From NCBI GenBank assembly GCA_051117555.1, contig JBNPEG010000084.1:26933-90932 (forward strand): a DNA stretch of 64,000 bases. Direction: 5' to 3'. A program made the translations under genes and the position numbers. Below the pieces are notes generated by a model. That model did no database searches. It was not told where the DNA came from and was given only the letters and a program-made list of their open reading frames with translations. The DNA is from Elainellaceae cyanobacterium (GTDB lineage: Bacteria; Cyanobacteriota; Cyanobacteriia; CAZCXK01). Shown in pieces: positions 3,400-52,295 of the stretch. The first letter of the stretch is position 1. Each line of letters starts with the position of its first letter.

Positions 3400-6300
3400 T
3401 TACAGGCCGTTGCCGATGAGGATGAAGGGTGCCCAGTAGTAAGGGTGGCTGAAACGAGTCTGAGATGATTGAGCTGTCGATTGCCCTTCATCAGTATCGA
3501 GTTCTTCTGGATTGGGTTCTATTGCAATGCCTCGATCATCGGAGCGATCGCCTGTTTCTTCCCCTCTGAGCAGACTCAGTTGAGCATCGCGCAAGGCTTG
3601 AGCAATGGTGCCTGGATTATCAGCGGTATTTTCAGCCAAGTTATGGTAAAAGCTCTGCATCAACTGACTGGTGCTGGCATCGTTCACCTGCCAAAGCGAC
3701 GCAACGACCGTATCCACGCCTGCATCAATAAAAGTCTGGGCAATACCTGAAATTTCTCTGCCGTCTAGTTCGGAAACTGCTGCTTGATTAGATGAGCGAC
3801 CGCCTAGAGCCGTTTCGCATGCTGAGAGCACCACCATGCTCAGAGACCGAAATTCGGCTCCAATATCTTGAATTTGGGAGATGCGCCAGTCTTCTTTGGT
3901 GCCCAGCATCAAGTAGGAGGAGTACAGGTTGGTGGGCATGTAGACGCCGTGGGTGGCGATGTGGAGAATGTTGTGCCCGGCCAAGCTGTAAAACACATTT
4001 TTATCAAACTGACTATTTAGTAACTCTTGACCCGAATAAATCCCGACTTCATCAGTGCGATCGCCACGCTGAACAATCACATCCAGTTCGTCGGGCACAT
4101 AACGCAGCCCCCTAAAACCGAACACATCGTCTGCCGGATCAACATCGGGTACTGCTTCTGACAGCCCCAAGGCCATTACGGAAATCGCGTTGGGGTCTTG
4201 GGGAAGAGGGGTATCTGCATGGCTCAACCAGGCGGCGGTGACGGTAGAAACAGTGTAGTTTTCAATCAGGTATTGGCTGCCGTCAAACAGCGCCGCCATC
4301 GGGATGTAGCGAACGGACCGATCCAGGGCAAAGACCAGGTTTTGAATATCATTTTGCTCTAGCTGCTCGCGCAACTGGGCAGGCATCAGCCAGTCATAAA
4401 GCTGCTGAGAAACCGCTTGAATCTCAGAGACAGGACTACACCGTCCCAATTCACATTGCGCCATCAGTTCATGGAAGCGAAACACCGCCTGGTTGATTTG
4501 CTCTTCACTGACGCCCTCCACATAAATGGGTTCTGCCAACCCTCCCTGAGTTGCCCACATGATTAAAAGCCGATCGTCTAGCACAATGGGATAAATCAAC
4601 ACCGTGCCTGGTTGAGCCTCAACGATTTTCTGCACATCCTCATAAATCAAGTCTTGTGGATCAGGGGCTTGATCATCAGCGGCGCGTCGCTGGCTCATAG
4701 CAGTTTCAAGCGTGCGAACGGCGTCGTTATAAGCAGTATTGCGTTCAGTGCGCTGTTGTTTGAGGCGGGTTAGCTCTTGTTGACCGCACTCTGGATCAGA
4801 TTCACAGGTGAGAATTGCCGAGCCCAACTGAATCAGGTCATAGTAGGCAGCCGCCGTGGTTTCTTCTTCAGGGAACTGATCGACCTCACGGGAGGCAACC
4901 CCACTGCGGGTATAGTCTCGAATTTCTTGAAGCTTTAGCAGCTCAATAACTTGCAGGGCTTCGAGGAGACGCCCTTGGGAAACGAGCAAGTCAGCGAGGC
5001 GGCGATAGGTATGGGAAACTGTATCAGTGTATGACTGCTGAAGTGCTTGGTCGAGCTGTTGAATGCCTCCCCGAATTTGTTCACGCGTATTGACGGACTG
5101 CTTTAAGAACACGATGGCAAGTTCGGGTTGGTCTTGAGTATCAAACAGGTGACCGATATTGTTAAGCGTAATGCCTTTTCCTGATTGATCCCCCACTTCA
5201 GTTCTGATGGCTAAGGCTTGCTGAAGGTACTCCAGCGCTTGCTGATACTGACCCAGATTGCGATACACCAAGCCAGTGTTGTTGAGGGTGGTGCCTTCAC
5301 CCGCGCGATCGCCTATTTCAATTGTGATAGCTAAGGCTTGCTGGTAATAGTCCAGTGCTTGAGAGTACTGACCTAGACTGTCATACACCCCGCCAATGTT
5401 GTTGAGGGTGGCTCCTTCTCCAGCGCGATCGCCAATGTCAGTTTTGATGGCTAAGGCTTGCTGATAGTGGTCCAGTGCTTGAGAGTACTGACCCAGAATG
5501 TCATACACCGAGCCAATATTGTTGAGGGTGACTCCTTCGCCAAATCGATCGCCCACTTCAGTTCTAATGGCTAAGGCTTGCTGGTAATAGTCCAGTGCTT
5601 GAGAGTATCGACCCAGATTGTCGTACACCAAGCCAATATTGTTGAGGGTGACTCCTTCGCCAAATCGATCGCCAATATCAGTTTTGATGGCTAAGGCTTG
5701 CTGATAATAGTCCAGTGCTTGAAAGTACTGACCCAGATTGACGTACACCCCGCCAATGTTGTTGAGGGTGGTTCCTTCTCCACGGCGATCGCCAATGTCA
5801 GTTTTGATGGCTAAGGCTTGCTGGTAATAGTCCAGTGCTTGAGAGTACTGACCCAGATTGGCGTACACCCCGCCAATGTTGTTGAGGGTGGTTCCTTCTC
5901 CAGCGCGATCGCCCACTTCAGTTCTGATGATTAAGGCTTGCTGATAATAGTCCAGTGCTTGAGAGTACTGACCCAGATGGATGTACACCAAGCCAATGTT
6001 GTTAAGGGTAGTTCCTTCGCCACGGCGTTGGCGGAACCTCTCTCCTGGAGAATTACCCCCTTCAGCGTGGATGGCTAAGGCTTGCTGGAAATAGTCAAAG
6101 GCTTGCTCATATTGGCCTAGTTTGAAGTACATTTCACCGATATTGTTGAGGGTGGCTCCTTCTCCAGCGCGATCGCCCACTTCGGTTCTGATGGCTAAGG
6201 CTTGCTGGTAGTAGTCGAGGGCTTGCTGATAGTCGCCCAGATTGCTATACACCAAACCAATGCCAGTGAGAATAGTTACTTCTCTAGATCGATCACCAGT

Positions 6301-6657
6301 TTCAACATTGATTTCTAATGCCTGCTGATAATAGTCCAGTGCTTGAGAGTACTGACCAACACTGTAAGCAATTGCCCCTAGCCCTGTTACGCTTCGTCCT
6401 TCTCCACGGCGATCGCCAATTTCTCGATAAATCTCGAACGCCCTTTGAAGCATCGATAGCGCTTGCTGATAGTCGCCTCGCTGCCAAAACTGAACTGACC
6501 TATCAAACAGTGCATCGGCTTCTGCTTGGCGATCGCCCTCTCCCACATCTTGAGCTAACGCCGTTGATTCCTTAAATGACAGAGAGAAGGGCGATGGAAC
6601 AATGAGCGATAGCAGAACCGTAGACGTCAACAAACCAAGCAAGCGGTGAGAGCGCAT
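3400..6657 (-). CDS. signal peptide + 40-aa TPR array + CHAT protease
   Basis: MRSHRLLG signal; TLNNIG/YQQALAI repeats; HIATHG and LSACET dyad; HPYYWAPFILIGNGL end. Confidence 0.93.
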   Translation of the reverse strand: MRSHRLLGLLTSTVLLSLIVPSPFSLSFKESTALAQDVGEGDRQAEADALFDRSVQFWQRGDYQQALSMLQRAFEIYREIGDRRGEGRSVTGLGAIAYSVGQYSQALDYYQQALEINVETGDRSREVTILTGIGLVYSNLGDYQQALDYYQQALAIRTEVGDRAGEGATLNNIGEMYFKLGQYEQAFDYFQQALAIHAEGGNSPGERFRQRRGEGTTLNNIGLVYIHLGQYSQALDYYQQALIIRTEVGDRAGEGTTLNNIGGVYANLGQYSQALDYYQQALAIKTDIGDRRGEGTTLNNIGGVYVNLGQYFQALDYYQQALAIKTDIGDRFGEGVTLNNIGLVYDNLGRYSQALDYYQQALAIRTEVGDRFGEGVTLNNIGSVYDILGQYSQALDHYQQALAIKTDIGDRAGEGATLNNIGGVYDSLGQYSQALDYYQQALAITIEIGDRAGEGTTLNNTGLVYRNLGQYQQALEYLQQALAIRTEVGDQSGKGITLNNIGHLFDTQDQPELAIVFLKQSVNTREQIRGGIQQLDQALQQSYTDTVSHTYRRLADLLVSQGRLLEALQVIELLKLQEIRDYTRSGVASREVDQFPEEETTAAAYYDLIQLGSAILTCESDPECGQQELTRLKQQRTERNTAYNDAVRTLETAMSQRRAADDQAPDPQDLIYEDVQKIVEAQPGTVLIYPIVLDDRLLIMWATQGGLAEPIYVEGVSEEQINQAVFRFHELMAQCELGRCSPVSEIQAVSQQLYDWLMPAQLREQLEQNDIQNLVFALDRSVRYIPMAALFDGSQYLIENYTVSTVTAAWLSHADTPLPQDPNAISVMALGLSEAVPDVDPADDVFGFRGLRYVPDELDVIVQRGDRTDEVGIYSGQELLNSQFDKNVFYSLAGHNILHIATHGVYMPTNLYSSYLMLGTKEDWRISQIQDIGAEFRSLSMVVLSACETALGGRSSNQAAVSELDGREISGIAQTFIDAGVDTVVASLWQVNDASTSQLMQSFYHNLAENTADNPGTIAQALRDAQLSLLRGEETGDRSDDRGIAIEPNPEELDTDEGQSTAQSSQTRFSHPYYWAPFILIGNGL
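6028..6051 (-). mobile_element. 24-nt in-frame insertion at a degenerate HIP1 position (SDR5-like)
   Basis: SPGERFRQ interrupts the TPR GDR motif; nearly the same insert is at 29050-29073. Confidence 0.65.
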
Positions 6658-7841: not shown

Positions 7842-7891
7842 AAACCGCCATATTAGGTCGCTGATGAACAATCCCTAAAGTTTTCTTCAAA

Positions 7892-7955: not shown

Positions 7956-8443
7956 ATGCGCTCTCACCGCTTGCTTGGCTTGTTGATGTTTACAGTTTTG
8001 CTATTGCTTAATGTGCCGCTGCGGATTATTGGGTTAGTGGGGGAGTTAAGGGCTGTAGCGCAAGATGTGGGCAAGGGCGATCGCCCTTGCCCCCTCTGAC
8101 ACCGATGATGGCCTACTCACCTCTACCAAAATCTTTTGGCTTAGACTTAAACGCTGAATTCGTCATCCTCAGTGCCTATGACACTGGGCGAGGGCCAATT
8201 ACAGGGGATGGCGTGATTGGGCTAGCGCGATCGCTGATTACCGCAGGCGTTCCCAGCGTTATGGTTTCATTGTGGTCGGTTCCCGACGCGCCCACCGACG
8301 AACTGATGACCAAATTCTATCGCCAGTTGCAGCAAAACCCCGACCAATCTCAAGCACTGCGTCAGGCCATGCTGATTACGATTCAAACTCATCCCCATCC
8401 TCGCAATTGGGCAGCATTCACGCTAATTGGGGAATCTGAATAA
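7956..8443 (+). pseudogene. internally deleted TPR-CHAT gene
   Basis: MRSHRLLG...GKGDR is joined at HIP1 (8077-8084) to a CHAT C-terminus (AIALAPSDTDDGLLTS...), with frameshifts and catalytic Cys changed to Tyr (LSAYDTG). Confidence 0.85.
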
Positions 8444-11362: not shown

Positions 11363-13822
11363 ATGCCTGAACAGTCTATATTTCAACTCAACGTTCATCA
11401 GGTCGACCAGCAATGTTTGTTTGAGTTGTCCTGGAGCCAGGGACGACGGCTTACAGCTCTGCTTAGTTATCCTCAGTCATTGATAGAACTCTATCAGCAG
11501 TGGCGACAGTTTTATCTCAGTTTCTATCGCACCGTTCAGATCCCGTTGGTTTTATCTCCACACGTGGAAAACGGACTGCGAGGCAGACGTGCAGAAAGCG
11601 GCAGCATTATCTCAACGCCGAAAGACTGGCAGGCTAAACTTGTTGAAGTCGAAGCAAAGTTTTTATACGCATTCCACCATTGGTTGCGCAGCGCCGAACT
11701 CTACGAGATCCGTGCCAAACTCGCTGAGGCAAGTCGTCTAAATAGAGATGGGCAACCCGTTGATCTGTTTCTCACCTGCACGCCTATTCAACTCTCTCGA
11801 CTACCGTGGGAAACGTGGGAAATAGGCACTGAATTTGCCTCAATGGGCGGAATCCGCATTGCCCGTTCTCCTGCCAATATCAGAGTAGAAGCAAATCCTA
11901 GAAATTCACTTCCGCGTCGCCGAACACGAATTCTGGCGATTTTGGGAGACGACACTGGCCTAAATTTCAAAGTCGACCGGGATGCGGTGCAGTCTCTTTC
12001 GCGCTTTGCAGATATAGAGTTTGTTGGCTGGCAACCGGGCAAATCCATTGACGAGCTAAAAACTGAAATCACCCAGGCGATCGCTCATCCGCTGGGTTGG
12101 GATATCCTATTCTTTGCTGGACACAGTAACGAAACTACTATGACCGGCGGAGAACTGGCGATCGCTCCCCAAACCCACATCGCCCTGCGTGACATTGCTC
12201 CCCAACTGGCGATCGCCAAAGAACGGGGTTTGCAGTTTGCTATCTTCAATTCCTGCAACGGCATCAATATTGCCGAAACGCTCATTGACTTGGGACTCAG
12301 TCAAGTGGCTGTGATGCGAGAACCCATTCACAATCGAGTTGCACAGGAGTTCCTAATCCGGTTCTTGCAAAGTCTTGCTGACCACAAAGATGTTCATGAG
12401 TCATTGATTACAGCCAGTCAGTTTCTAAAGACGACTAAGAACCTGACCTATCCGTCTGCGTATTTGGCACCCTCTCTATTTCGCCATCCCGACTCGACGC
12501 TGTTTCGTGTTCAACCGATAGGTTGGAAGCAACAATTCAGGCGACTTATGCCCAAGCGCTATGAGGCGATCGCTCTAGCAGTTTTGATGATTCTGGGTAG
12601 TTATGGTTCTGTTCAATATCGACTGTTAGAAGGCAGAGTTCTGGCTCAGGCTCGCTACCGTCAATGGACACACCGAGTTCAGTCTGATAAACCTTCCCCC
12701 TTACTTCTCGTTCGAGTGGATGGAGAGTCCCTTGATCGAGAAAATATCTTGGAACGGAACCCAATTCCACCTGATTATCTGGCTAGTTTGATAACACAAT
12801 TATCGGCTCGTGACGTAAGTGTAATCGGAATTGATTATTTGATCGACCGCCAACAAGAAGGCAGTGATTTGATGGCGAAGGCTGTAAGGGAGGTAGCAGG
12901 ACAAGGAACGATATTTGTATTTGCAAGTATCCAAGATAATCATGCTCGGTGGATGAAAACCACGCCAGAGATTGCCGATCCAGTCTATAGCATTCATGGG
13001 GATGCAGCCCGTGCTTGGGGAAATGACTATCGGATGCCACTCTTAATTGAAGGACGAGAACATCTCCTCCCGTTTGCACTATTGATGGTGTTGCTCCAGC
13101 AAAATTCTGGAACTTCCTCTATATCAAATGAACCTGTTGGCTTAGCCATTTTTGATAACCCCGGTCAGCTTACAGAATTGTTTTCGCCTCGCCTCTATTG
13201 GCAGTCGATTTCACGCCTGAGTTACCGTTTCAAACAATATTGGTTGCATCCAATTACCGATTTTTCGCTCCCACCTCATCAGGTTTATCAATCAATACCA
13301 GCCTGGAAGCTGCTAGAACAGCCAAACGCGCCTGAATTGAAGCACTTACCCCAGCAAGCGGTGATGATCGCAGCAGGAGGCTATGAGGAAGCAGGATTAA
13401 TTCCGGGTGATGATAATGAAAACTTTGAAGCTCCAGACGCGATGAGCTACTGGTATCGACAGGAGAATCCTCATAACCCTTATCGTGAGATGACTGGGGG
13501 CGAACAGCATGCCTATCTCTTCCATCATTTTTTGAATCGTCGATTTGTTATCCCTGTCCCCAATCTGTGGATGATATTACTTGCAGCGATCGCTGGAAAG
13601 GTCACAGTTTTGCTACTCGCGCGACAGCGTTCAACGAATACCAAGGCATACCAGCGTTATGAAGGGTTGATTGGTTCAGGACTTTTAATTAGCACCGCAA
13701 TATATGCGCTGATGAGCCTTGAGTTATATGTATCGACACTGGCGATCGCATTTCCTATTGTTCTTCCCATCGCAGCCTATTGGGGCTATGTATTGCCATC
13801 GTTATTTCGAAATAAACCATGA
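11363..13822 (+). CDS. CHAT protease - TM - CHASE2 sensor - 3TM membrane protein
   Basis: LPWETW, FFAGHS and FNSCNG dyad; a TM segment; LLLVRVD and VIGIDY CHASE2 motifs; three C-terminal hydrophobic helices. Confidence 0.85.
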   Translation: MPEQSIFQLNVHQVDQQCLFELSWSQGRRLTALLSYPQSLIELYQQWRQFYLSFYRTVQIPLVLSPHVENGLRGRRAESGSIISTPKDWQAKLVEVEAKFLYAFHHWLRSAELYEIRAKLAEASRLNRDGQPVDLFLTCTPIQLSRLPWETWEIGTEFASMGGIRIARSPANIRVEANPRNSLPRRRTRILAILGDDTGLNFKVDRDAVQSLSRFADIEFVGWQPGKSIDELKTEITQAIAHPLGWDILFFAGHSNETTMTGGELAIAPQTHIALRDIAPQLAIAKERGLQFAIFNSCNGINIAETLIDLGLSQVAVMREPIHNRVAQEFLIRFLQSLADHKDVHESLITASQFLKTTKNLTYPSAYLAPSLFRHPDSTLFRVQPIGWKQQFRRLMPKRYEAIALAVLMILGSYGSVQYRLLEGRVLAQARYRQWTHRVQSDKPSPLLLVRVDGESLDRENILERNPIPPDYLASLITQLSARDVSVIGIDYLIDRQQEGSDLMAKAVREVAGQGTIFVFASIQDNHARWMKTTPEIADPVYSIHGDAARAWGNDYRMPLLIEGREHLLPFALLMVLLQQNSGTSSISNEPVGLAIFDNPGQLTELFSPRLYWQSISRLSYRFKQYWLHPITDFSLPPHQVYQSIPAWKLLEQPNAPELKHLPQQAVMIAAGGYEEAGLIPGDDNENFEAPDAMSYWYRQENPHNPYREMTGGEQHAYLFHHFLNRRFVIPVPNLWMILLAAIAGKVTVLLLARQRSTNTKAYQRYEGLIGSGLLISTAIYALMSLELYVSTLAIAFPIVLPIAAYWGYVLPSLFRNKP

Positions 13823-31864: not shown

Positions 31865-32821
31865 ATGAAAACCAACATCACCAAGAGATTTGTCCTACCA
31901 TTTCTTGCAGGGTTACTCGGCATTTGGATATTCAGTAGTTTCCTTCCAAAGGTTTCAATCGTATCGGCTCAAACAGATCCTAAGACTCGCTCGGAGATTA
32001 TACCCATCACTGTGATTCACGATATTTCAACTGCCGAGCTTGACATCGAGCCTGAATCATTTATTCCGCCAGGCGTAGATCTATCGCTTCAGCCTACTGA
32101 GGGAGGACGCGGCATCATCAGCAATGACGATCGGGTTTTGATGACCAGCGATCAATTTCCCTGGTCAACGGTGGGGCGAGTCGAGGGAATGAAAGCCGAT
32201 GGCGATCGGTTCAATCGCTGCACAGGCACCCTCATTGGTATGAATCTTGTTTTAACGAATGCTCACTGCGTCGTTGATGAATCTACCCACGAAGTCAATT
32301 ATGCAATGTGGTTTCAGCCCAATTTAGTCAATGGTCAGTTACAAGACGCATCTGACGAAGCAGCAGTAGTCACAGTGGCGTATGGAACAGATTTTCGTAA
32401 CTCGGCAACCTCTCACATCAATGATTGGGCATTACTCTGGCTTGATCGACCGCTCGGCGAAACCTATGGAACAATAGGATGGCGATCGCCATCACTCTCC
32501 TTCTTCCAGGAAAACGTGGAGACGCTCATCATGGTTGGATATTCGGGCGATTTCCCGACAGATAACCCTGGCGAAACGGCTGCTGCCCATATCGGATGCA
32601 GCATTTTAGATGAGAGCAACGGTATCTTTTTCCACGACTGCGATAGCACGAATGGTGCCTCTGGCGGTCCCATTTTTGCTGAGGTCGATGGCAGTGTTTA
32701 CTTAGTTGCGCTCCATGCTGGAGCTAGACATCATCCGGATACGAATGAAATCACAGCTAACTATGCTGTCAAAATGGCTTGGCTAGCAGATCAGTTCAAC
32801 ATTATTTCTGAAAGAGAGTAA
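31865..32821 (+). CDS. secreted trypsin-like (V8/S1B-type) serine protease
   Basis: TNAHC, DWAL and GASGGP triad; signal peptide and propeptide. Confidence 0.92.
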   Translation: MKTNITKRFVLPFLAGLLGIWIFSSFLPKVSIVSAQTDPKTRSEIIPITVIHDISTAELDIEPESFIPPGVDLSLQPTEGGRGIISNDDRVLMTSDQFPWSTVGRVEGMKADGDRFNRCTGTLIGMNLVLTNAHCVVDESTHEVNYAMWFQPNLVNGQLQDASDEAAVVTVAYGTDFRNSATSHINDWALLWLDRPLGETYGTIGWRSPSLSFFQENVETLIMVGYSGDFPTDNPGETAAAHIGCSILDESNGIFFHDCDSTNGASGGPIFAEVDGSVYLVALHAGARHHPDTNEITANYAVKMAWLADQFNIISERE

Positions 32822-35548: not shown

Positions 35549-35597
35549 TGTCTATGCTTTGACTACACTTCAACCGACCACTTTACAAGGAAAAACC

Positions 35598-43848: not shown

Positions 43849-44041
43849 GCGATCGCCCATTCACCCATTGCGTGAAGATTTAATGCATTGCACTGGGCGT
43901 ACGGCGTCATTGGTGTCAACTTAAGCTGAAAGCTCCTATCATGAAAGGCTTTGCTGCGATCGCCCTCACCCCCAACCGCTCTCCCAATTTTGGGAGAGGA
44001 GAGAAAAATGTACGCCGTACGCCCCTGCATACGTTTCATTG
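43849..44041. repeat. REP-like unit interrupted by a nested repeat insertion
   Basis: Aligns with 14689-14770 but carries about 100 extra bp (43908-44009) flanked by GTACGGCGT and GTACGCCGT. Confidence 0.6.
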
Positions 44042-44059
44042 ATTACTGCTGGAGAAATT

Positions 44060-46831
44060 ATGCGTTCTCACCACTTGCTTGGCCTAGTGACTTCTACCAT
44101 TCTGCTGTCACTCATTGTCCCAGTTCCTGTTTTGCTATCGCTTGGAGAATCAACAGTTCTGGCTCAAGATGTGGGAGAAAGCGATCGCCAAGCTGACGCT
44201 GACGCTTTGTTCCAGCAATCAATTCGGGCCGGGCAGCAAGGTGACTATCAACAAGCGCTAGGAATGCTTCAGCAAGCCTTGGTAATTTACAGAGAGACTG
44301 GTAATCATCGTGGAGAAGGACTGACGTTAAGAGCCTTAGGAGCTATTTCAAACCGAATTCATCAGTATTCTCAGGCACTCGAATACTATCAACAAGCGTT
44401 AGATGTATTTTCTGAACTTGGCGATCGCTTGAGTGAAAGTACTGTTCTTAACAGAATGGGTTTAATTTACGACAATCTAAACCAATATCAGCAGGCTCTA
44501 GCTTCTTATCAGCAGGCGTTAGACATCAGTTCTGAGATTAGTATCCGTGAAGCATTTCCACAGGAAAGTCGTTCCGAACAAAGTAATGCTTTCAATAACA
44601 TTGCTGCCGTCTACTTCGACTTAGGTCAATATCAAGAGGCACTCAACTATTTTCAGCAAGCATTAGTTGTTGATATTGAACTAGGTGATCGACGCGGGGA
44701 AAGCACTATCCTCAACAATATTGGTGCCGTCTATGATAACCTCGGTCAATATCAGCAAGCTCTAGCCTCTTATCAACAGGCTCTGGCAATCGCGTCTGAA
44801 ATTGAATATCCTTCAGGAGAAGGTACTGCCTTAACCAATATTGGATTGGTCTACGCCAACTTGGGCCAATATCAACAGGCCCTCAACTCTCACCAACAGG
44901 CTTTGACTATCTTTACTGAGATTGGCAATCTTCAAGGGGAAGGATCTGCACTGACCAACATAGGTGCAGCATACCGCCACTTAGACCAATATCAGCAAGC
45001 TCTAGATGCCCATCGCTGTGCTTTAACTATTTTCACTGAAATCAACGATCGTCAAGGGCAAGGTTTCGCTTTCAATAATATTGGCTCGCTCTACGATAAC
45101 CTCGGCCAGTATGAGCAAGCTCTAGATTCTTATCATCAGGCGTTGCTCATTCTAGCTGAGCTTGGCAATCGCCGAGGTGAAGGTGTTACGCTTCATGGCA
45201 TTGGATTGGCGCATCAAAACTTAGGTCAGTATGAACAAGCACTGGAGTATTATCAACAATCCATCACGATCAGTATTGAGATTGGCGATCGCCGGGGTGA
45301 AGGCAGTACGCTCCATAATATTGGTGCTGTGTATTTAGAAACAGGACGCTATGCTGATGCAGAACAAACACTGTTTGAAGCATTGGCAGTACTGGAATCT
45401 TTGAGAGATGAGGATTTGGACGATGTCGATAAAGTCGCTTTATTTGAGACCCAACTCAATATCTACGAACTCCTCCAGCAAACCCTAACAACTCAAGGAA
45501 ACAATGAAATTGCTCTAGAGATTGCGGAACGCGGACGGGCACGCATCATGGTCGAGCTTCTGACCGAACAAGCTTCAGATCGCTTGTCACAAGAGATTTT
45601 CAGTGATGTACCTACTGTAGAAGAAATTCAGCACATTGCTCAGCAGCAGAACGCTACCCTCGTCAACTACTCCTTAATCAACTCAGGCGTGGGTGATCCA
45701 GCACTCTACATCTGGGTCGTACAACCAGATGGAACTATTGACTTTGTTGAAGTTCCCCTCAGCGACACTGAAACCCATACTCCATTCCGTAATCCGATCG
45801 CTCAGCTTGATGGTGCCTTCTATCGCGGGATATCTCGACCTGACGTGAGTTCTCCACTCGTCGCCGATCTCCGTTCTGCCCTTGGCACCGATCGCGGCAT
45901 TGAATTGGTTAGAACCGATGATGCCGAAACCACCAACCGCCTCCAAGAATTTCACCATCTTCTTATTGATCCGATCGCCCACCTCCTGCCTACTGACCCT
46001 AACGAGAAAGTCGTTTTTATTCCTCAAGGTAGCTTGTTTCTCATCCCCTTCGCCGCCCTCCAAGACGACAACGGGACCTATTTGATCGAACGTCATACGA
46101 TATTGACTGCACCCTCTATTCAAGTCTTAGGGCTCACTCAAGACATCCAAGCTAGTCTGAGCCGCGATCGTGTTCAATTCAGCGATTTAACAACCGAGGA
46201 AATGTTGATTGTTGGCAACCCCACCATGCCAGAAGCTTGGAACCCCGACAACTCTGAAATGGAGCAGTTGAGTCCTCTTCCGGGTGCCGAACGGGAGGCC
46301 AACGCGATCGCCCGCTTCCTCAACACCCATTCTCTTACTGGAGATGCGGCCACCGAGACCCAAATCCGGCAGCAGATACAAACTGCCCGGTTAATTCATT
46401 TAGCAACCCACGGGTTACTACAATACGGCATTCCTCAGGAGTCAGGAGTGAGAGACATACCCGGCGCAATCGCGTTAGCTCCCGGTAGCAGAGACGATGG
46501 ATTGCTCACGTCTGCCGAAATTCTAACTCTTGATCTTAATGCCGAATTAGTTGTATTAAGTGCCTGTGATACCGGACGAGGGGATATTCGAGGAGATGGA
46601 GTGATCGGTCTGTCGCGATCGCTCATCACAGCGGGAGTACCCAGCATTGTGGTCTCTCTGTGGCAGGTGCCCGATACTCCGACTGCTAATCTAATGACGG
46701 AATTTTATCGTCAGCTTCAGCAATCACCCGATAGAGCCGAAGCGTTACGACAAGCGATGCTGATTACAATGCAGGATCATCCCCATCCGATTAACTGGGC
46801 TGGATTCACGCTAATCGGGCAAGCAAATTAA
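44060..46831 (+). CDS. signal peptide + TPR array + CHAT protease (ERGRAR subtype)
   Basis: MRSHH signal after a GGAGA RBS; HLATHG and LSACDTG. Confidence 0.93.
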   Translation: MRSHHLLGLVTSTILLSLIVPVPVLLSLGESTVLAQDVGESDRQADADALFQQSIRAGQQGDYQQALGMLQQALVIYRETGNHRGEGLTLRALGAISNRIHQYSQALEYYQQALDVFSELGDRLSESTVLNRMGLIYDNLNQYQQALASYQQALDISSEISIREAFPQESRSEQSNAFNNIAAVYFDLGQYQEALNYFQQALVVDIELGDRRGESTILNNIGAVYDNLGQYQQALASYQQALAIASEIEYPSGEGTALTNIGLVYANLGQYQQALNSHQQALTIFTEIGNLQGEGSALTNIGAAYRHLDQYQQALDAHRCALTIFTEINDRQGQGFAFNNIGSLYDNLGQYEQALDSYHQALLILAELGNRRGEGVTLHGIGLAHQNLGQYEQALEYYQQSITISIEIGDRRGEGSTLHNIGAVYLETGRYADAEQTLFEALAVLESLRDEDLDDVDKVALFETQLNIYELLQQTLTTQGNNEIALEIAERGRARIMVELLTEQASDRLSQEIFSDVPTVEEIQHIAQQQNATLVNYSLINSGVGDPALYIWVVQPDGTIDFVEVPLSDTETHTPFRNPIAQLDGAFYRGISRPDVSSPLVADLRSALGTDRGIELVRTDDAETTNRLQEFHHLLIDPIAHLLPTDPNEKVVFIPQGSLFLIPFAALQDDNGTYLIERHTILTAPSIQVLGLTQDIQASLSRDRVQFSDLTTEEMLIVGNPTMPEAWNPDNSEMEQLSPLPGAEREANAIARFLNTHSLTGDAATETQIRQQIQTARLIHLATHGLLQYGIPQESGVRDIPGAIALAPGSRDDGLLTSAEILTLDLNAELVVLSACDTGRGDIRGDGVIGLSRSLITAGVPSIVVSLWQVPDTPTANLMTEFYRQLQQSPDRAEALRQAMLITMQDHPHPINWAGFTLIGQAN

Positions 46832-48341: not shown

Positions 48342-48466
48342 AACGACGTTTGCATGTGCCGCTTCAACGTATGTAGCTCTCGCAACGGCGTTTGCATGTG
48401 CCACTTCGTCGTTGCAGCGCTCAAAAACGACGTTTGCATGTGCCACTTTGTCGTTGCAGCGCTGAC
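48342..48466. repeat. 42-bp tandem repeat, order A-B-B
   Basis: Units start at 48342, 48384 and 48426. Confidence 0.88.
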
Positions 48467-48573
48467 AACGATGTTGCAACGCTTGAATTGGATGTCAGAG
48501 ACTAGACTTCGATGCGATCCAGTTAGGCAATTTTAGACGTATCGCTGAACCAATATTCTAGCCATCCCAGAAC

Positions 48574-48755: not shown

Positions 48756-51700
48756 ATGCGCTCTCACCGCTTGCTTGGTTTAGTGACGTCCACAGTTCTG
48801 CTGTCGTTTGTTGTTCCGGTATCCTTGTCGCCGTCGTTTAGAGAATCAGCGGCATTAGCTCAAGAGGCGGGAGAGGGCGATCGCAAAGCCGAAGCTGATG
48901 CACTCTTTAATGGCTCAATTCAGTTTTGGCAGCGAGGCGACTATCAACAAGCGCTATCGATGCTTCAACAAGCGTTAGAGATTTATCGAGAGATTGGCGA
49001 TCGCCGTGGGGAAGGAGCCACCCTCACTGGCATTGGCGCGGTGTATCGCAATCTGGGTCAGTACTCTCAAGCCCTTGACTATTATCAGCAAGCATTAGAA
49101 ATCAATATTGAAACTGGCGATCGCCAGGGAGAAGGCACCACCCTCAACAACATTGGCGTGGTGTACGACAGTCTGGGTCAATATCAACAAGCGCTGGACT
49201 ATTACCAGCAAGCCTTAGCCATCCGAACTGACATTGGCGATCGCCGTGGAGAAGGAGTCACCCTCAACAACATTGGCGCGGTGTACGACAATCTGGGTCA
49301 GTATCAGCAAGCGCTGGACTACTATCAGCAAGCCTTAGCCATCACAACTGTCATTGGCGATCGATCCGATGAAGGGAATATCCTCGACAACATTGGCCAG
49401 GTGTATCACAATCTGGGTCAGTATCAGCAAGCGCTGGACTACTATCAGCAAGCCTTAGCTATCCGAACTGACATTGGCGATCGCCGTGGAGAAGGCACCA
49501 CCCTCAACAACATTGGCGGGGTGTACGACAGTCTGGGTCAGTATCAGCAAGCGCTGGACTACCTTCAGCGAGCCTTAGCCATCAGCATTGACATTGGCGA
49601 TCGATCTGGAGAAGGCACCACCCTCAACAACATTGGCGGGGTGTACGACAGTCTGGGTCAGTATCAGCAAGCGCTGGACTACTATCAGCAAGCCTTAGCC
49701 ATCCGAACTGACATTGGCGATCGCCGTGGAGAAAGAGTCACCCTCAGCAACATTGGTGAGGTGTATCGCAATCTCGGTCAGTATCAGCAAGCACTGGGCT
49801 ACTTTCAGCGAGCCTTAGCCATCAGCATTGACATTGGCGATCGCGCTGGAAAAGGAATAGCCCTTAATAGTATTGGCGCGGTGAGTGGCAATCTCGGTCA
49901 GTATCAGCAAGCACTGGACTACTTTCAGCGAGCCTTAGCCATCAGCATTGACATTGGCGATCGATCTGGAGAAGGCACCACCCTCAACAACATTGGCGGG
50001 GTGTACGACAGTCTGGGTCAGTATCAGCAAGCGCTGGACTACTATCAGCAAGCCTTAGCCATCCGAACCGAAGTGGGCGATCGCCGTGGAGAAGGACGGA
50101 CCCTCAACAACATTGGCTTGGTGTATCGCAAGCTGGGTGAGTATCAGCAAGCGCTGAACCACTATCAGCAAGCCTTAGCCATCCGAACTGAAGTGGGCGA
50201 TCGTTCTGGTGAAGGAGTCACCCTCAACAACATTGGCGTGGTGTACGACAGTCTGGGTCAATATCAACAAGCGCTGGACTATTACCAGCAAGCCTTAGCC
50301 ATCCGAACTGACATTGGCGATCGCGCGGGTGAAGGAACCACCTTCAACAACATCGGTGCGGTGTATCGCGATCTGGGTCAGTATCAGCAAGCGCTGGACT
50401 ATTATCAGCAAGCCTTAGCCATCACAACTGTCATTGGCGATCGCCGTGGAGAAGGACGGACCCTCAACAACATTGGCTTGGTGTACGACAGTCTGGGTGA
50501 GTATCAGCAAGCGCTGGACTATTACCAGCAAGCCTTAGTCATCATCACTGACATTGGCGATCGCGCGGGTGAAGGAGCCACCCTCAACAACATTGGTTAT
50601 ACGCTAGAGTCGCTTGGTCAGTCTGAATTAGCAATTGTTTTTCTCAAAGAATCCGTCAACCAGTGGGAAGAAATTCGCGGTGACATTCGCGGACTTTCCA
50701 TTGAACAGCAGCAGTCTTTTGCAGACAGCATTTCATCCAGCTATCGTCGTCTCGCCGACCTCCTCCTGCAAGCCGATCGCGTCCTCGAAGCCCAACGAGT
50801 CCTTGACCTGCTCAAAGTCCAAGAGCTTGACGAATACTTGCAAGATGTCCAGCGCAGTGCCCAAACCGAAGACGGAGTTCCACTATCTAATCCTGAAGTA
50901 CAAATTCAAGAGCGTCAGCAAGCTATTACCAATCGAGCCGTTGCCATTGGTGAAGAACTGGCTCAACTCCGTCAAATCGAGCCTGAAAATCGCACGCCAG
51001 AGCAGATGGCTCGCATCACCGAACTAGAAGCAATGCAGGCTGAAGTCATTGCCGAGTTTGAAGACTTTATCTACAGTGATGAAATCCAGGCACTGGTGGC
51101 TCAGCTTACCCGCGAGACTCGTCCCCAAGATTTGGTCAATGAACTCGATGAACTGATCACTATTCAAGACAACCTCCGCGCCCTCGAACAAAACGCAGTG
51201 TTGCTCTATCCGTTGATTCTCGACGATCGCATTGAACTTGTGCTCGTAACGCCTAACAGTCCACCAGCCCGCTATCCCATCAACGTCAGCCGCAGCGAAC
51301 TCAATGCCGCCATCGTCGAGTTTCGACAGGCATTAGAAACACCCACTAGCAATCCAGAAGCGATCGCCCAACAGCTCTACAACTGGCTGATTCAACCCCT
51401 CGCATCAGACCTCGAAGCCATCAACGCCGAAACCATCATCTACGCTCCTGATGGCGTACTGCGCTACGTGCCCCTAGCCGCTCTGCATGATGGCGATCGC
51501 TGGTTAGCCGAACGCTTTCGCGTCAACCACATCACCGCCGCCAGCCTCACCAATCTCAACCTACAGCCAGCCGCTCAGCCTGACATTTTAGCGGCTGCCT
51601 TTAGCGAAGGCTCCGTTGAATTTCAAGTGGGCGATCGCAACTTTGCCTTTGATGGGTTGCCCTATGCAGGTCAAGAAGTCGAAAACTTGGTCGCGGCGTT

Positions 51701-52295
51701 TCCTGGAACCACCAAGCTAATGGACGAAGACTTTAGCCCCACCGCAACCGTGGGCATCATGGATGACCACACCATCGTCCACCTGGCAACCCACGCCGAA
51801 TTTGTGCAAGGCACTCCTGCCGAGTCATTCATCGTGTTTGGCAATGGCGATCGCGTCACCCTCGAAGAAATTAAGCAGTGGCGAGGTCGCTTTCGGCAGA
51901 TTGATTTGATTGTGCTAAGTGCCTGTGAGACAGGTCTAGGAGAAAGCTTGGGTAACGGGGAGGAAATTCTCGGCTTTGGCTACCTAATGCAGCGGGCAGG
52001 CGCACGAGCGGCGATCGCGTCTCTCTGGGCTGTGAGCGACGGAGGCACTCAAAACCTAATGGATGCCTTCTACACTGCTATTCTCAATGGCTACAGCAAA
52101 ACCGAAGCCTTGCAACGAGCGCAAGTGGCTCTAATCCGCAATGACGCATCGGTGTTAGAACCATCCCAGCGAGGCATTCAGCTCGAATCCACCGAAACAG
52201 GTGAACCCTTGGAAATTCAGAGCAGATCCCTGCAAGGACGCCTCGGTCATCCCTACTATTGGGCTCCCTTCATCCTCATCGGTAACGGACTATGA
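48756..52295 (+). CDS. signal peptide + long TPR array + CHAT protease
   Basis: About 14 near-identical 120-bp TPR units; HLATHA and LSACETG. Confidence 0.93.
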   Translation: MRSHRLLGLVTSTVLLSFVVPVSLSPSFRESAALAQEAGEGDRKAEADALFNGSIQFWQRGDYQQALSMLQQALEIYREIGDRRGEGATLTGIGAVYRNLGQYSQALDYYQQALEINIETGDRQGEGTTLNNIGVVYDSLGQYQQALDYYQQALAIRTDIGDRRGEGVTLNNIGAVYDNLGQYQQALDYYQQALAITTVIGDRSDEGNILDNIGQVYHNLGQYQQALDYYQQALAIRTDIGDRRGEGTTLNNIGGVYDSLGQYQQALDYLQRALAISIDIGDRSGEGTTLNNIGGVYDSLGQYQQALDYYQQALAIRTDIGDRRGERVTLSNIGEVYRNLGQYQQALGYFQRALAISIDIGDRAGKGIALNSIGAVSGNLGQYQQALDYFQRALAISIDIGDRSGEGTTLNNIGGVYDSLGQYQQALDYYQQALAIRTEVGDRRGEGRTLNNIGLVYRKLGEYQQALNHYQQALAIRTEVGDRSGEGVTLNNIGVVYDSLGQYQQALDYYQQALAIRTDIGDRAGEGTTFNNIGAVYRDLGQYQQALDYYQQALAITTVIGDRRGEGRTLNNIGLVYDSLGEYQQALDYYQQALVIITDIGDRAGEGATLNNIGYTLESLGQSELAIVFLKESVNQWEEIRGDIRGLSIEQQQSFADSISSSYRRLADLLLQADRVLEAQRVLDLLKVQELDEYLQDVQRSAQTEDGVPLSNPEVQIQERQQAITNRAVAIGEELAQLRQIEPENRTPEQMARITELEAMQAEVIAEFEDFIYSDEIQALVAQLTRETRPQDLVNELDELITIQDNLRALEQNAVLLYPLILDDRIELVLVTPNSPPARYPINVSRSELNAAIVEFRQALETPTSNPEAIAQQLYNWLIQPLASDLEAINAETIIYAPDGVLRYVPLAALHDGDRWLAERFRVNHITAASLTNLNLQPAAQPDILAAAFSEGSVEFQVGDRNFAFDGLPYAGQEVENLVAAFPGTTKLMDEDFSPTATVGIMDDHTIVHLATHAEFVQGTPAESFIVFGNGDRVTLEEIKQWRGRFRQIDLIVLSACETGLGESLGNGEEILGFGYLMQRAGARAAIASLWAVSDGGTQNLMDAFYTAILNGYSKTEALQRAQVALIRNDASVLEPSQRGIQLESTETGEPLEIQSRSLQGRLGHPYYWAPFILIGNGL

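Follow-up and report, generated by a model that had tools for sequence, protein, structure and literature searches.

The stretch of DNA analyzed here (the window, 64 kb) comes from a filamentous, HIP1-rich cyanobacterium and is most of a large accessory gene cluster. Ten full-length genes for CHAT (caspase-fold) proteases, A, C, D, E, G, H, I, J, K, and L, lie between positions 3400 and 52295, and nine of them encode N-terminal TPR arrays. All ten are intact ORFs on a single 91-kb contig of a draft assembly of 256 contigs. The cluster also codes for putatively exported trypsin-like, subtilisin-like (S8), and caspase proteases, for two-partner-secretion genes, and for TpsA, TpsB, RTX, and cadherin-like exoproteins; a separate TpsA gene is located farther upstream, at C13:3277-6657. 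Part of the region was present in one public sequencing run, from a soil metagenome (word share, 0.09). The main features are as follows, with signal peptides given as predicted.

3400..6657, minus strand: gene A; signal peptide, S1 N-cap, about 11 TLNNIG-type 40-amino-acid TPR units, helical linker with Cys pairs, A/G-clade CHAT (E = 9.5e-55)
7956..8443, plus strand: broken copy; S1-type 5' stub (7956-8099, MRSHRLLGL...) that continues, out of frame, as a K-type CHAT C-terminal fragment (8087-8443, E = 4.7e-34)
11363..13822, plus strand: gene B; weak CHAT/caspase domain with CHASE2, adjoining a DUF1822 gene (10020-11354)
14870..17725, plus strand: gene C; signal peptide, S2 N-cap common to G, about 8 GNLG-type TPR units, C/L-clade CHAT, tail as in E
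18207..22055, plus strand: gene D; signal peptide, PPC domain, 11 to 12 homogenized 42-amino-acid TPR units (60% GC), distinct CHAT (E = 7.6e-88)
23060..26143, plus strand: gene E; signal peptide, heterogeneous TPRs, E/J-clade CHAT, C-type converted tail (25865-26031)
27268..28020, plus strand: ORF F; TPR only, 250 amino acids
28295..28426, plus strand: solo S1-type 5' stub just upstream of G; promoter-like stretch and degenerate signal peptide, 43 codons and then a stop
28510..31800, plus strand: gene G; its own signal peptide, S2 N-cap, about 11 GNLG-type units, Cys-pair linker, A/G-clade CHAT (SACQT)
31865..32821, plus strand: putatively exported trypsin-like serine protease; paralogues at 42872-43834 and 55231-56241
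32870..35548, plus strand: gene H; signal peptide, degenerate TPRs, CHAT of its own lineage, tail as in L
35532..37139, plus strand: gene I; signal peptide, no TPRs, CHAT with Asn in place of the catalytic His, overlapping the end of H by 17 nt
39910..42705, plus strand: gene J; S1 5' module, two G-type TPR units and then divergent TPRs, E/J-clade CHAT
44039..46831, plus strand: gene K; S1 5' module, NNIG-like TPRs, distinct short CHAT
48756..52295, plus strand: gene L; S1 5' module, 14 full TLNNIG-type TPR units and one partial, C/L-clade CHAT, tail as in H
52611..55160, plus strand: Peptidase_C14 caspase and DUF4384 protein, an array neighbor
56699..57061, plus strand: D-type CHAT C-terminal fragment; broken copy adjoining Uma2 genes (E = 3e-41)
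58206..59939, minus strand: ShlB/FhaC-type TpsB outer membrane transporter, the first gene of a flank conserved in the congener G002

The locus is one of gene birth and death, with three broken copies, and 5' stubs and CHAT fragments persist in it. The CHAT fragment at 8087-8443 has its catalytic Cys replaced (SAYDT). The 5' regions of J and L match the region of the solo stub (28200-28356) at 78% identity. Gene B belongs to a neighboring system outside the mosaic set described below; gene D is a member of the array but is also outside that set. ORF F is either a fragment or a separate small TPR protein, and the true start of gene K is likely the Met of MRSHH at 44060. Each of the three trypsin-like paralogues comes after a CHAT or caspase gene.

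Domain architecture and predicted export

The PF12770 profile matched 11 of 24 large ORFs above its curated cutoff of 24 bits (30.6 to 295 bits), and two fragments matched as well. E values ranged from 1e-51 to 1e-88 in 10 of the ORFs, and the gene B match was weak. A putative His-Cys dyad, H(L/I/F)ATH and SAC(E/Q/D)T, is found in A, C, D, E, G, H, J, K, and L, with the His and Cys columns aligned to the dyad region of Csx29; all three members of the I clade have Asn in place of the His. An AlphaFold model of the C-terminal half of C (mean pLDDT, 77.3) had Csx29, DdvA, and separase as its top PDB matches (E = 3e-11 to 1e-7) and also matched SAVED-CHAT and gingipain R, which suggests a caspase/separase-like fold. 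The TPR-CHAT proteins are built in the order signal peptide with a conserved x-A-Q motif, N-cap, array of 40-amino-acid TPR units, helical linker of about 170 residues, and CHAT domain. What an earlier, sequence-only reading of this DNA called the tail is a hypervariable loop within the CHAT domain, just ahead of the conserved last strand HPYYWAPFILIGNGL, and not a C-terminal extension. This loop near the end of the domain is disordered and contains a conserved Arg/Lys-Gly.

Signal peptides were called by hydropathy and motif and not with a trained predictor. By these measures, an N-terminal hydrophobic 12-mer is present in all ten CHAT proteins, B excepted (Kyte-Doolittle [KD] value, 1.98 to 2.73), and an x-A-Q motif follows the hydrophobic stretch in 9 of the 9 CHAT proteins read for it (all but I). 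These N-terminal features recur in the S8 protease and in each of the trypsin-like paralogues, and the hydropathy measure found no hydrophobic N-terminal segment in ORF F. Among relatives, 71 of 82 full-length proteins have such an N terminus, versus 141 of 369 control ORFs. The linkers of A and G contain paired Cys residues. We infer that the TPR-CHAT proteins are Sec exported and extracytoplasmic, since all copies carry predicted signal peptides. A Pfam scan found no TPS domain (PF05860), the mark of TpsA cargo, in these proteins.

Mosaic genes and gene conversion

The sequence-only reading had proposed that TPR, CHAT, and tail modules are shuffled among these genes, with all four pairings of two TPR types and two CHAT types. 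The motifs it named are present where it put them. TLNNIG occurs eight times in A (3400, minus strand) and nine times in L (48756), GNLG occurs seven times in C (14870) and ten times in G (28510), CELGRCS and CEHGRCS are found, each with ALDR, in A and G, respectively, and W.GRF is found in C and L, so that the two-by-two set of TPR type against CHAT type is full. The tail DETVLELEGDRG is common to C and E (23060), the DASVLEPS... tail to H (32870) and L, and QSSQTRF.HPYYW to A and G. Separate assortment of the tails was borne out for the C/E and H/L pairs but not for the A/G pair (3400/28510), which is also the A/G CHAT pair; these two genes are sisters along the whole C-terminal half, so assortment is independent in only two of the three tail pairs.

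Trees made separately by segment, the check proposed with that reading, were incongruent, and congruent domain trees were the outcome it had set against itself. With groups chosen after the data had been seen (P values of 1e-3 to 1e-6), AU tests on the CHAT core rejected C plus E (P = 1.5e-5) and H plus L (P = 8.6e-4), and the test on the tail rejected C plus L (P = 1.2e-6). Sliding nucleotide identity showed that partners change along the genes. A and L are 81 to 83% identical over about 900 nt of the 5' half, whereas their CHAT halves share 32 to 35% protein identity. The mosaicism is far above chance. It also extends beyond the original proposal, with a 5' module (promoter, signal peptide, and N-cap) common to A, J, K, and L (3400, 39910, 44039, and 48756) and two G-type TPR units inside J (39910). 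The 5' module of A and L is 81% identical over 667 nt, 79 nt of it upstream of the genes; that of J and L is 89% identical over 300 nt and 87.5% over 809 nt, about 547 nt of it upstream.

Two longer tracts are identical between paralogues, and a third exact tract spans 51 nt.

17447..17613, plus strand: conversion tract in the C tail; all 167 nt match 25865-26031 in E
29815..29964, plus strand: conversion tract in G TPR units; 150 nt identical to 40177-40326 in J

Identity around the exact tracts drops stepwise. In windows 5' of the 167-nt tract, C and E share 54 to 76% nucleotide identity, and the TPR units of G and J are 90.7% identical over 270 nt around the 150-nt tract. The 167-nt and 150-nt tracts show recent gene conversion; comparison with relatives suggests that the C/E conversion ran from C to E. 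These results show that paralogues in this genome have swapped 5' modules, tail loops, and some of their TPR units by ectopic gene conversion or unequal crossing-over, and such exchange within the genome leaves mosaic genes together with broken leftovers.

An assembler or polisher working from short reads might create mosaic genes or exact tracts as chimeras of near-identical paralogues, and both the draft state of the genome and the length of the two longer tracts, which exceeds the usual assembly k-mers, are compatible with that origin. We regard it as very improbable: most of the shared modules are 80 to 91% identical rather than 100%, the ten ORFs are intact on one contig, identity falls stepwise at the tracts, and independent genomes also lack linkage of TPR type to CHAT clade and have orthologues with different TPR arrays. 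That parallel selection on short motifs made the TPR types and tails alike without DNA exchange is scarcely credible. TPR consensus motifs do recur widely, and relatives were typed by short regular expressions; however, the likeness is at the nucleotide level, including synonymous sites and the noncoding upstream DNA of the A/L and J/L modules, paralogues share exact tracts of 150 to 167 nt, and the first units in A and in L are orthologous by position. Convergence is contradicted by this nucleotide-level evidence.

Variation in the TPR units and among relatives

TPR units within a gene are 79 to 89% identical in nucleotide sequence. The variation falls almost wholly at unit positions 5, 9, 16, 19, and 20, the same five in both TPR types, and the arrays are homogenized elsewhere. 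Unit positions 9, 16, 19, and 20 correspond to TPR positions 2, 9, 12, and 13, which the cited part of one study places among the concave-face specificity positions (PMC1261162). Cross-validated dN/dS was 1.38 and 1.01 at the variable positions and 0.27 at other positions, computed from repeat units that are mutually nonindependent. The ratio at the variable positions was 2.7 to 2.9 within A or L alone and about 1.0 to 1.1 in C and G, and relaxed constraint and positive selection fit the values near 1 in the GNLG arrays equally. In this check, which the sequence-only reading had proposed, dN/dS is at or above 1 (range, 1.0 to 2.9) at the putative ligand-face positions. The units mostly group by gene, with the first units of A and L as the positional orthologues noted above.

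Among cyanobacteria the family is very common (at least 589 stretches), with a wide spread in the filamentous ones. In a tree of 98 CHAT cores, the window genes are scattered among genes of other genomes, and for 5 of 7 genes (C, E, H, and J, with L a near tie) the nearest core is in another genome, A and G being nearest each other; this distribution indicates that the paralogues are old lineages. The nearest matches of the 5' caps and tails, on the other hand, are within the same genome (67 to 91%), and TPR arrays are slightly more alike within the genome than between genomes (73 versus 70% and 69 versus 67%). In other genomes, where TPR types were assigned by short regular expressions, TPR type is unlinked to the CHAT tree and all four TPR/CHAT pairings occur. 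Given these pairings and the slight within-genome excess, several exchanges may be old and much of the reassortment may be ancient and inherited.

The locus was compared between species of one genus. An invariant locus, the other outcome set against shuffling, was not seen: one species has no member and another has a remnant. A search with this query found no subfamily member in G002 (99% complete), which matches only the right flank (94.7% over 5.7 kb), and G001 (61% complete) has a remnant of L in two pieces (93%). For at least 85 kb of contig C13, no match was found in the genome of a congener. On its left, the cluster is bordered by a dispersed repeat where the contig stops, so the extent of an "85-kb insertion" has no defined limit.

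These data bear on a neutral account, in which the array is an ordinary multigene family of exported housekeeping proteases serving sheath or exoprotein turnover, nutrient scavenging, or maturation of the nearby TPS, RTX, and cadherin-like exoproteins. Ectopic recombination would then occur because the DNA is repetitive and tandemly arranged, and the mosaics and variable positions would be a by-product of relaxed constraint. The ratios near 1 in C and G suit this account, as do the grouping of units by gene, which mechanical homogenization predicts, the presence in the cluster of TpsA, TpsB, RTX, and cadherin-like exoproteins as possible substrates, the commonness of the family in cyanobacteria, and a PADLOC search in which no known defense system was matched beyond generic TPR and caspase profiles. 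However, the same five positions vary in two TPR types, and four of these are concave-face specificity positions. Moreover, dN/dS reaches 2.7 to 2.9 in A and in L taken singly. A congener does without the cluster, which is unusual for housekeeping genes, and comparison of E against L018 shows, between orthologues, a conserved CHAT core with a replaced TPR array, which points to pressure on the recognition part. We hold the neutral account to be possible but doubtful.

Candidate function and known systems

We think it reasonably probable that the array is a birth-and-death, recombining repertoire of extracytoplasmic recognition-coupled proteases. The TPR groove would bind a periplasmic or extracellular target protein by an extended peptide, and the bound target would be presented to the CHAT site or would switch that site on allosterically. 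Module exchange and groove variation would supply new specificities, and candidate targets include phage or competitor proteins, other filaments, and the cell's own exoproteins. The diversifying receptor-protease repertoire proposed earlier keeps its module exchange, its groove-mapped TPR variation, and its birth and death of genes; the predicted signal peptides would set these proteins apart from the cytoplasmic NLR-type arrays that its analogy implies.

By analogy, such a repertoire might have an immune or allorecognition role. In its strongest form, which we put forward tentatively and consider unlikely, the array would be a germline-encoded, recombining receptor-protease repertoire, the periplasmic or cell surface counterpart of NLR/VLR-type diversifying immune receptors. 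Each TPR groove would have its own foreign protein to recognize, for instance, a tail or injection protein of a phage as it crosses the periplasm, a toxin exported by a competitor, or a protein on the surface of a non-kin filament. Binding would fire the fused CHAT protease. The disordered tail loop with its Arg/Lys-Gly could be an autoinhibitory pseudosubstrate or a self-cleavage latch, swappable between paralogues, and the I-type copy that lacks TPRs and the catalytic His could be a regulator, with the paired trypsin-like proteases as a downstream cascade.

TPR-CHAT proteins are abundant in filamentous bacteria, and the cited account names few that have been studied: separase, Csx29, HetF, and DdvA (PMC11506125). 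Receptor-like evolution, if true, would mean that bacteria have recognition-coupled proteases, periplasmic or extracellular, as a class alongside the single periplasmic sensor DdvA. It would also become possible to test what the cyanobacterial CHAT expansions do, a long-standing question, by comparing the ligands and phenotypes of paralogues whose groove differences are known. Should the mosaics be neutral, the locus would still be a clean natural case of ectopic gene conversion in a bacterial paralogue family, in which outgroups allow donor and recipient to be told apart.

Csx29 of the type III-E CRISPR-Cas Craspase (PDB 8EEX, 8D9G, and 7X8A) was the best structural match (E = 3e-11) and the best PDB sequence match (E = 3e-5). 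It likewise has TPRs followed by a CHAT domain with a caspase-like fold and is activated allosterically. Unlike the window proteins with their predicted signal peptides, Csx29 is cytoplasmic, single copy, and bound to Cas7-11 and crRNA. Against the Csx29 model NF041237, gene A scored 26.6 bits with a cutoff of 300, and the other scanned ORFs had no listed match; no Cas-like Pfam match was found in 45 scanned ORFs, and a repeat scan found no CRISPR-type repeat family. HetF of Anabaena/Nostoc is the founding cyanobacterial CHAT protease, a cysteine protease with reported activity on a specific substrate, PatU3 (PMC9457339 and PMC8406250). Likened here by description and not by sequence, it differs in being a conserved developmental and divisome protein with no variable tandem family.

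The caspase-based conflict systems of multicellular bacteria described by Kaur, Burroughs, Iyer, and Aravind are enriched in filamentous bacteria and, in the passages cited, combine caspase-superfamily and trypsin-like peptidases with TPRs and place variable modules around constant cores (PMC7159879 and PMC8195603). Their EACC2-caspase-CHASE2 plus DUF1822 arrangement (PMC8195603) is that of gene B and its neighbor. An exported TPR-CHAT tandem family or gene conversion between paralogues is not described in those passages, and Pfam scans of the window ORFs examined found no MoxR-vWA, GTPase, or EACC1 core.

The closest characterized analogue of the window proteins is DdvA, which ranked ninth among structural matches of the C model (E = 2e-9) and gave a weak profile match (E = 0.0029). 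Its TPR-CHAT domain is periplasmic, and in the part of the paper cited, its authors propose sensing of a periplasmic, possibly phage-derived protein that is answered by proteolysis (PMC11506125). In both, a CHAT domain with a His-Cys dyad comes after an array of TPRs; for the window proteins, a location outside the cytoplasm is predicted from sequence. DdvA differs as a single, membrane-anchored gene product whose cytoplasmic portion is a zinc anti-sigma domain and whose partner is an ECF sigma factor, whereas the window proteins have predicted signal peptides and no such anchor, form a recombining tandem family, and carry homogenized 40-amino-acid TPR units. A Pfam scan found no anti-sigma domain in them, and the N-cap and TPRs directly follow a signal-peptide-like segment of 30 to 50 residues.

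The mosaic protease array resembles the diversification of immune-receptor families. Fungal NLRs, with their highly internally conserved TPR, ANK, or WD repeats, and the Ectocarpus NB-ARC-TPR genes (PMC3341825) are repeat-based receptor families diversified by shuffling. They have in common with the window arrays tandem clusters, birth and death, near-identical repeats that differ at few ligand-facing positions, and repeat exchange between paralogues. Pfam found no NACHT or NB-ARC domain in the CHAT proteins. The fungal and Ectocarpus receptors are cytoplasmic and have a STAND NTPase core, whereas in the window proteins the effector is fused directly to the repeats and the whole is predicted to be exported.

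Gene content of the protease cluster

The window spans positions 26933-90932 of contig C13 of the source genome (G000), and its right edge is the end of this 90.9-kb contig. A Pfam scan of the window's ORFs found eleven CHAT-domain ORFs within 3400-52295. Nine of these have N-terminal TPR arrays, and gene I has none. We lettered these genes, with one TPR-only ORF, A to L.

Genes of the cluster and its neighbors (coordinates, strand, description)
A, 3400-6657, minus strand: CHAT ORF
B, 11363-13822, plus strand: weak CHAT domain fused to CHASE2, of a different kind from the other ten
C, 14870-17725, plus strand: CHAT ORF
D, 18207-22055, plus strand: CHAT ORF
E, 23060-26143, plus strand: CHAT ORF
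F, 27268-28020, plus strand: TPR-only ORF
G, 28510-31800, plus strand: CHAT ORF
H, 32870-35548, plus strand: CHAT ORF
I, 35532-37139, plus strand: CHAT ORF without TPRs
J, 39910-42705, plus strand: CHAT ORF
K, 44039-46831, plus strand: CHAT ORF
L, 48756-52295, plus strand: CHAT ORF
1123-3297, minus strand: neighboring S8 subtilase
31865-32821, 42872-43834 and 55231-56241, plus strand: neighboring trypsin-like proteases, three paralogues
59988, minus strand: neighboring fourth trypsin-like protease, with PEP-CTERM signal
52611, plus strand: neighboring Peptidase_C14 caspase with DUF4384
37239, plus strand: neighboring CAP-RTX protein
58206, minus strand: neighboring ShlB-type TpsB transporter
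22133-22836: neighboring MNT/HepT toxin-antitoxin pair

The three trypsin-like paralogues are 43-50% identical, with the His in LTNAHCV and the Ser in GASGGP. Each directly follows a gene for a CHAT protein or caspase (in order, G, J and the C14 caspase), which suggests repeated two-protease cassettes. Gene D is unlike the others, with 60% GC, an N-terminal PPC domain, a long insert within the CHAT domain and 11-12 near-identical 42-aa TPR units of the TPR_10/NPHP3 type. Two C-terminal CHAT fragments (8087-8443 and 56699-57061) both adjoin Uma2 endonuclease genes. The second is of the D type and lies 35 kb from D; a truncated Uma2 ORF (56431-56730) overlaps its 5' end, and an intact Uma2 gene follows it. 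Small mobile or defense-type genes are dispersed through the array (22133-22836; 6955-7530, 57065-57646, 46834-47484 and 63191-63799, these four on the minus strand), and they comprise the MNT/HepT pair, Uma2 genes (two intact and one truncated), a PD-(D/E)xK protein and an IS701-family transposase fragment. PADLOC recognized no defense system and returned only generic TPR, caspase, LmuA-like and PD-(D/E)xK matches.

Upstream on C13, a TpsA gene is directly followed by another TPR-CHAT gene and then by genes for DUF928, a second CHASE2-CHAT, DUF1822, RTX and PPC proteins. A module of DUF1822 with a weak caspase/CHAT-CHASE2 gene is present in two copies (window 8496-14665 and G000:C13:9476-14270), flanked by ORFs of no assigned family. 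DUF928 and a 219-aa ORF, which faintly matches sigma-70 region 4 (E 0.012), accompany the upstream copy. The two-copy module agrees with an arrangement described in PMC8195603, in which EACC2-caspase-CHASE2 occurs with DUF1822 and an ECF sigma factor. For ORFs 8496-10004, 13832-14665 and 61873-62673, Pfam yielded no informative match even at E values up to 1. A family of 42-nt tandem repeats at 39405-39597 and 48298-48490, 5' of J and L, is part of a duplicated region upstream of these genes, with one more copy at 57848-57956. Short dispersed repeats of ~85-125 nt (26361-26446, 52411-52835 and 7735-7855) recur in both congeneric genomes, in dozens of copies 80-97% identical, and look like miniature mobile elements.

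Gene I, which overlaps the end of H by 17 nt, belongs to a conserved TPR-less CHAT sublineage with members at two loci of other cyanobacteria (L018:17736-19463 and L094:3298-4644, both minus strand); the L018 gene is directly downstream of an E orthologue. All three members have Asn in place of the catalytic His (HIAANVW, HLASNSV and HLAANTW) but retain the Cys. The I-type protein may be a pseudo-protease partner or regulator.

Exchange of modules among the CHAT genes

The sequence-only reading held that TPR, CHAT and tail modules are shuffled combinatorially among these genes. All the motifs that it named were found in the genes it assigned them to, as were its four pairings of two TPR unit types (TLNNIG and GNLG) with two CHAT types (Cys-insert and W.GRF): A is TLNNIG/Cys-insert, G is GNLG/Cys-insert, L is TLNNIG/W.GRF and C is GNLG/W.GRF. 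Its claim that tails assort separately stood for the C/E and H/L tails but not for the A/G pair. A and G are mutually nearest along the whole C-terminal half (47-69% nt), so their tail pairing is part of an overall sisterhood and no evidence of separate assortment. The A/G CHAT domains share only 32-35% protein identity with the remaining CHATs, and the two CHAT types are evidently deep lineages.

Different parts of the same gene have different closest partners. The 5' halves of A and L are 81-83% identical at the nucleotide level over ~900 nt, of which 79 nt precede the start codon, and C has its N-cap (79% over 56 aa) and TPR array (69% aa) in common with G. C tracks L in the linker and CHAT core (63-77% nt) and then E in the tail (91-100%). 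Maximum likelihood trees built separately for four segments, a check that the same reading had proposed, disagree with one another. AU tests rejected C+E (P = 1.5e-5) and H+L (P = 8.6e-4) for the CHAT core and C+L (P = 1.2e-6) for the tail; these P values, though small, are optimistic because the groups were named after the data had been seen.

Longest exact matches between genes
C/E, 167 nt: 17447-17613 = 25865-26031
G/J, 150 nt: 29815-29964 = 40177-40326
J/L, 51 nt: 39988-40038 and 48834-48884
A/L, 31 nt

The tail is a loop inside the CHAT domain, and no other 15-aa segment varies as much among 63 family members (entropy 2.95 bits); its flanks are conserved. It is disordered in an AlphaFold model (pLDDT below 60; residues 523-528 below 50), and we speculate that a conserved Arg/Lys-Gly within it is a candidate self-cleavage or pseudo-substrate site.

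A further module, missed in the sequence-only reading, is a 5' unit of upstream DNA, signal peptide (MRSHRLLGL...) and N-cap common to A, J, K and L, with 67-81% amino acid identity over the signal peptide and cap. In J and L the common stretch continues for ~550 nt upstream (87.5% over 809 nt). The module also occurs as two dead copies:

7956-8099: continues, out of frame, as a K-type CHAT fragment that has lost the catalytic Cys
28295-28426: solitary, just upstream of G

The TPR region of gene J has two G-type units and then divergent TPRs. We estimate that the nine genes underwent five or more separate exchanges, counting the conflict among the four pairings, both tail events, the transfer between G and J and the dispersal of the 5' module. 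Misassembly could in principle have produced such mosaics, and convergence the likeness of the modules. Both are unlikely, since the common modules are mostly 80-91% and not 100% identical, include noncoding DNA, and TPR type and CHAT clade are decoupled in independent genomes as well.

The octamer HIP1 (GCGATCGC) occurs 149 times in the window against 1.39 expected, and its abundance, together with the relatives found, identifies the host as cyanobacterial. A preprint (10.1101/2024.09.10.611283) proposes that HIP1 acts in a Chi-like way. At the 167-nt C/E tract, GCGATCGC marks the exact start and a second copy finishes 2 nt before the end; the 51-nt J/L tract has a copy at its end. Across 484 paralogous alignments genome-wide (60-92% identity), the ends of exact runs fell at a HIP1 edge in 7.2% (12-19 nt), 3.5% (20-39 nt), 8.0% (40-79 nt) and 7.9% (at least 80 nt; 3 of 38 ends) of cases. 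Long runs were not enriched and the G/J tract is not bounded by HIP1, so we rejected HIP1 as a general boundary of conversion tracts; its presence at the C/E and J/L tract ends is probably a coincidence helped by HIP1 conservation. The loop codons of many TPR units spell HIP1, for example at 48877-50564 (L), 15393-15880 (C) and 18941-20082 (D), with up to one copy per 120-126 nt in the arrays versus about one per 430 nt across the window. In the 40-aa units the octamer falls within GGC GAT CGC, the codons for G-D-R; in the 42-aa units of D it appears, from the protein sequence, to lie in Q-R-S-L.

The TPR unit is 40 aa (120 nt) long, and units of A, L, C and G are 79-89% identical in nucleotides to a reference unit, with more divergent units at the ends. 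The distinct 42-aa unit of D is likewise homogenized. Units cluster chiefly by gene, the exceptions being the first units of A and L, which pair, and J80 and J120, which fall among G units. Such clustering matches concerted evolution within arrays with occasional transfer between genes. Amino acid entropy peaks at unit positions 5, 9, 16, 19 and 20 in both types. We take unit positions 11, 14, 15, 18, 27, 31 and 34 to be positions 4, 7, 8, 11, 20, 24 and 27 of the canonical TPR signature, and this alignment makes unit positions 9, 16, 19 and 20 TPR positions 2, 9, 12 and 13. The TLNNIG and GNLG types differ at TPR position 5 (Asn versus Gly). Magliery and Regan (PMC1261162) list TPR positions 2, 5, 9, 12, 13, 33 and 34 as most variable, all on the concave ligand-binding face.

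The sequence-only reading inferred a diversifying receptor-protease repertoire and pointed to dN/dS at variable TPR positions as a check. The ratio was at least 1 at these positions (1.01-2.85) versus 0.26-0.36 elsewhere, as descriptive pairwise Nei-Gojobori counts on nonindependent repeats. For cross-validation, hypervariable positions were chosen in one TPR type and dN/dS was measured in the other.

dN/dS at variable TPR positions and elsewhere
Cross-validated, A+L tested: variable 1.38; elsewhere 0.27
Cross-validated, C+G+J tested: variable 1.01; elsewhere 0.27
Within A alone: variable 2.70; elsewhere 0.26
Within L alone: variable 2.85; elsewhere 0.28
Within C alone: variable 1.09; elsewhere 0.28
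Within G alone: variable 1.07; elsewhere 0.36

The main rival to a diversifying repertoire, less probable but plausible, is neutral ectopic recombination within a repetitive housekeeping family. Confinement of the variation to the TPR groove and one CHAT loop is well supported by these sequence comparisons.

Age of the exchanges and variation between genomes

A subfamily profile scored A, C, E, G, H, I, J and L at 501-633 bits and the next best ORF elsewhere in the genome at 238, so the subfamily is confined to this locus. Of 28 CHAT matches in the whole genome, 13 lie here. A quick LG+G4 tree was built from 98 CHAT cores, 90 of them from other cyanobacteria and 8 from the window, and in it every window gene except A and G groups with genes of other genomes; the C core is 79% identical to a gene of an Elainellaceae MAG and the E core 77% to an uncultured-cyanobacterium gene. 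The window paralogues are, as this tree places them, old lineages and not a recent burst.

For five of seven genes the CHAT core is closest to one from a different genome: C (78%, locus L057), E (83%, locus L018), H, J and L (nearly tied with C). Caps (67-81%) and tails (80-91%) have their nearest relatives within the same genome. The E core orthologue at L018 has a tail unrelated to that of E, and the relatives of C have C-like tails, which points to conversion from C to E; the same outgroup logic points to an H tail derived from the L lineage. Other genomes likewise show all four TPR/CHAT pairings. With relatives typed by short motif counts (51 of 98 rows none/other), the family tree has 27 NNIG changes against a shuffled-label mean of 29.3 (100 of 500 shuffles as low) and 8 GNLG changes against 8.7. 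Given these near-shuffled counts and the pairings elsewhere, TPR/CHAT reassortment is old and recurrent in the family. The exchanges that can be shown to be recent here involve the 5' modules, tails and G/J units.

We compared the cluster with 30 related genomes. Two that are 99% complete, one of the same genus (G002) and one of the same family (G003), have only distant CHAT paralogues (~36% identical), and in a 61%-complete congener (G001) the match is a 105-aa piece, 95% identical. Close members (E below 1e-100) occur in 9 of 27 other-family genomes, several of them clustered. G002 DNA matches the right flank only (window 58238-63877, 94.7%); the rest of C13 (positions 1-85169) has only dispersed short repeats and weak paralogue similarity to it. 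A candidate left anchor (C13:115-330 = G002:C33:20008-20223, 91%) was rejected as a dispersed repeat that also matches G002:C47 and contig C21 of the source genome. The contig start lies in this repeat and so supplies no left border for the cluster. G001 retains two adjoining pieces of the L CHAT domain (93% nt) without the intervening 253 nt of the window, abutting sequence that lies elsewhere in the source genome, and these pieces are a remnant.

Relatives are encoded in at least 589 stretches of a public genome collection; all 80 examined are cyanobacterial by title, and 11 of 76 loci have at least two family members within ~20 kb. Three subfamily members lie within 12 kb at one locus of Leptolyngbya sp. 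Cla-17, in a record titled plasmid unnamed5, which hints that TPR-CHAT arrays can travel on mobile replicons. One public run matched, a set of soil metagenome contigs (0.09 word share; at 88% likeness, short pieces mostly 90-95% alike); its joints had sides of 21-35 letters, an unreliable length, and we drew no evidence from the run. No RNA run containing the region was found among the public runs searched. The comparisons give good support to the reading that the cluster is accessory and its paralogues old, with gene conversion and unequal crossing-over having reshuffled them.

Predicted export, fold and known systems

Apart from B, every CHAT protein (ten in all) has a hydrophobic N-terminal 12-mer (KD 1.98-2.73), followed by a conserved x-A-Q motif in aligned A, C, E, G, H, J, K and L and in D. 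The S8 protease and the three trypsin-like proteins have the same N-terminal features. Such an N terminus occurs in 71 of 82 full-length relatives versus 141 of 369 other ORFs of the same loci. From this hydropathy and motif we infer that the CHAT proteins are exported. Two Cys pairs lie in the linker and the opening part of the CHAT domain of A and G, which would fit an oxidizing compartment.

In the PDB, a profile of the C-terminal halves matched chains of Csx29 at E 3e-5 and DdvA at E 0.003. The AlphaFold model of the C-terminal half of C (63-sequence alignment; mean pLDDT 77.3, pTM 0.67) has seven long helices and then an alpha/beta domain, and Foldseek matched it to Csx29 (E 3e-11), DdvA (2e-9), human separase (1e-7), SAVED-CHAT and gingipain R, with low TM-scores (0.2-0.27) that we attribute to differing domain arrangements. 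By profile, dyad and predicted fold, the window proteins are CHAT family members.

By analogy with TPR-peptide recognition, DdvA, Csx29 and separase, the function is probably recognition-coupled proteolysis outside the cytoplasm. The TPR groove would bind an extended stretch of a target protein, and the bound target would either be presented to the His-Cys site or activate it. Candidate targets are foreign (phage, competitor or non-kin filament) or the cell's own exoproteins.

We found no description of exported, recombining TPR-CHAT arrays in the open-access papers and bioRxiv preprints searched. DdvA is the one studied periplasmic TPR-CHAT; its authors propose (PMC11506125) that it responds to a protein signal, perhaps a phage protein on its way through the periplasm, by cleaving itself. 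The window proteins are not anti-sigma factors of the DdvA type, having neither the zinc anti-sigma domain nor a membrane anchor. Nor are they Csx29, since the score is 26.6 bits against a cutoff of 300, no cas genes are among the scanned ORFs and a putative signal peptide is present. They are not STAND/NLR proteins, as they have no NTPase domain, but they have repeat architecture and mode of evolution in common with them.
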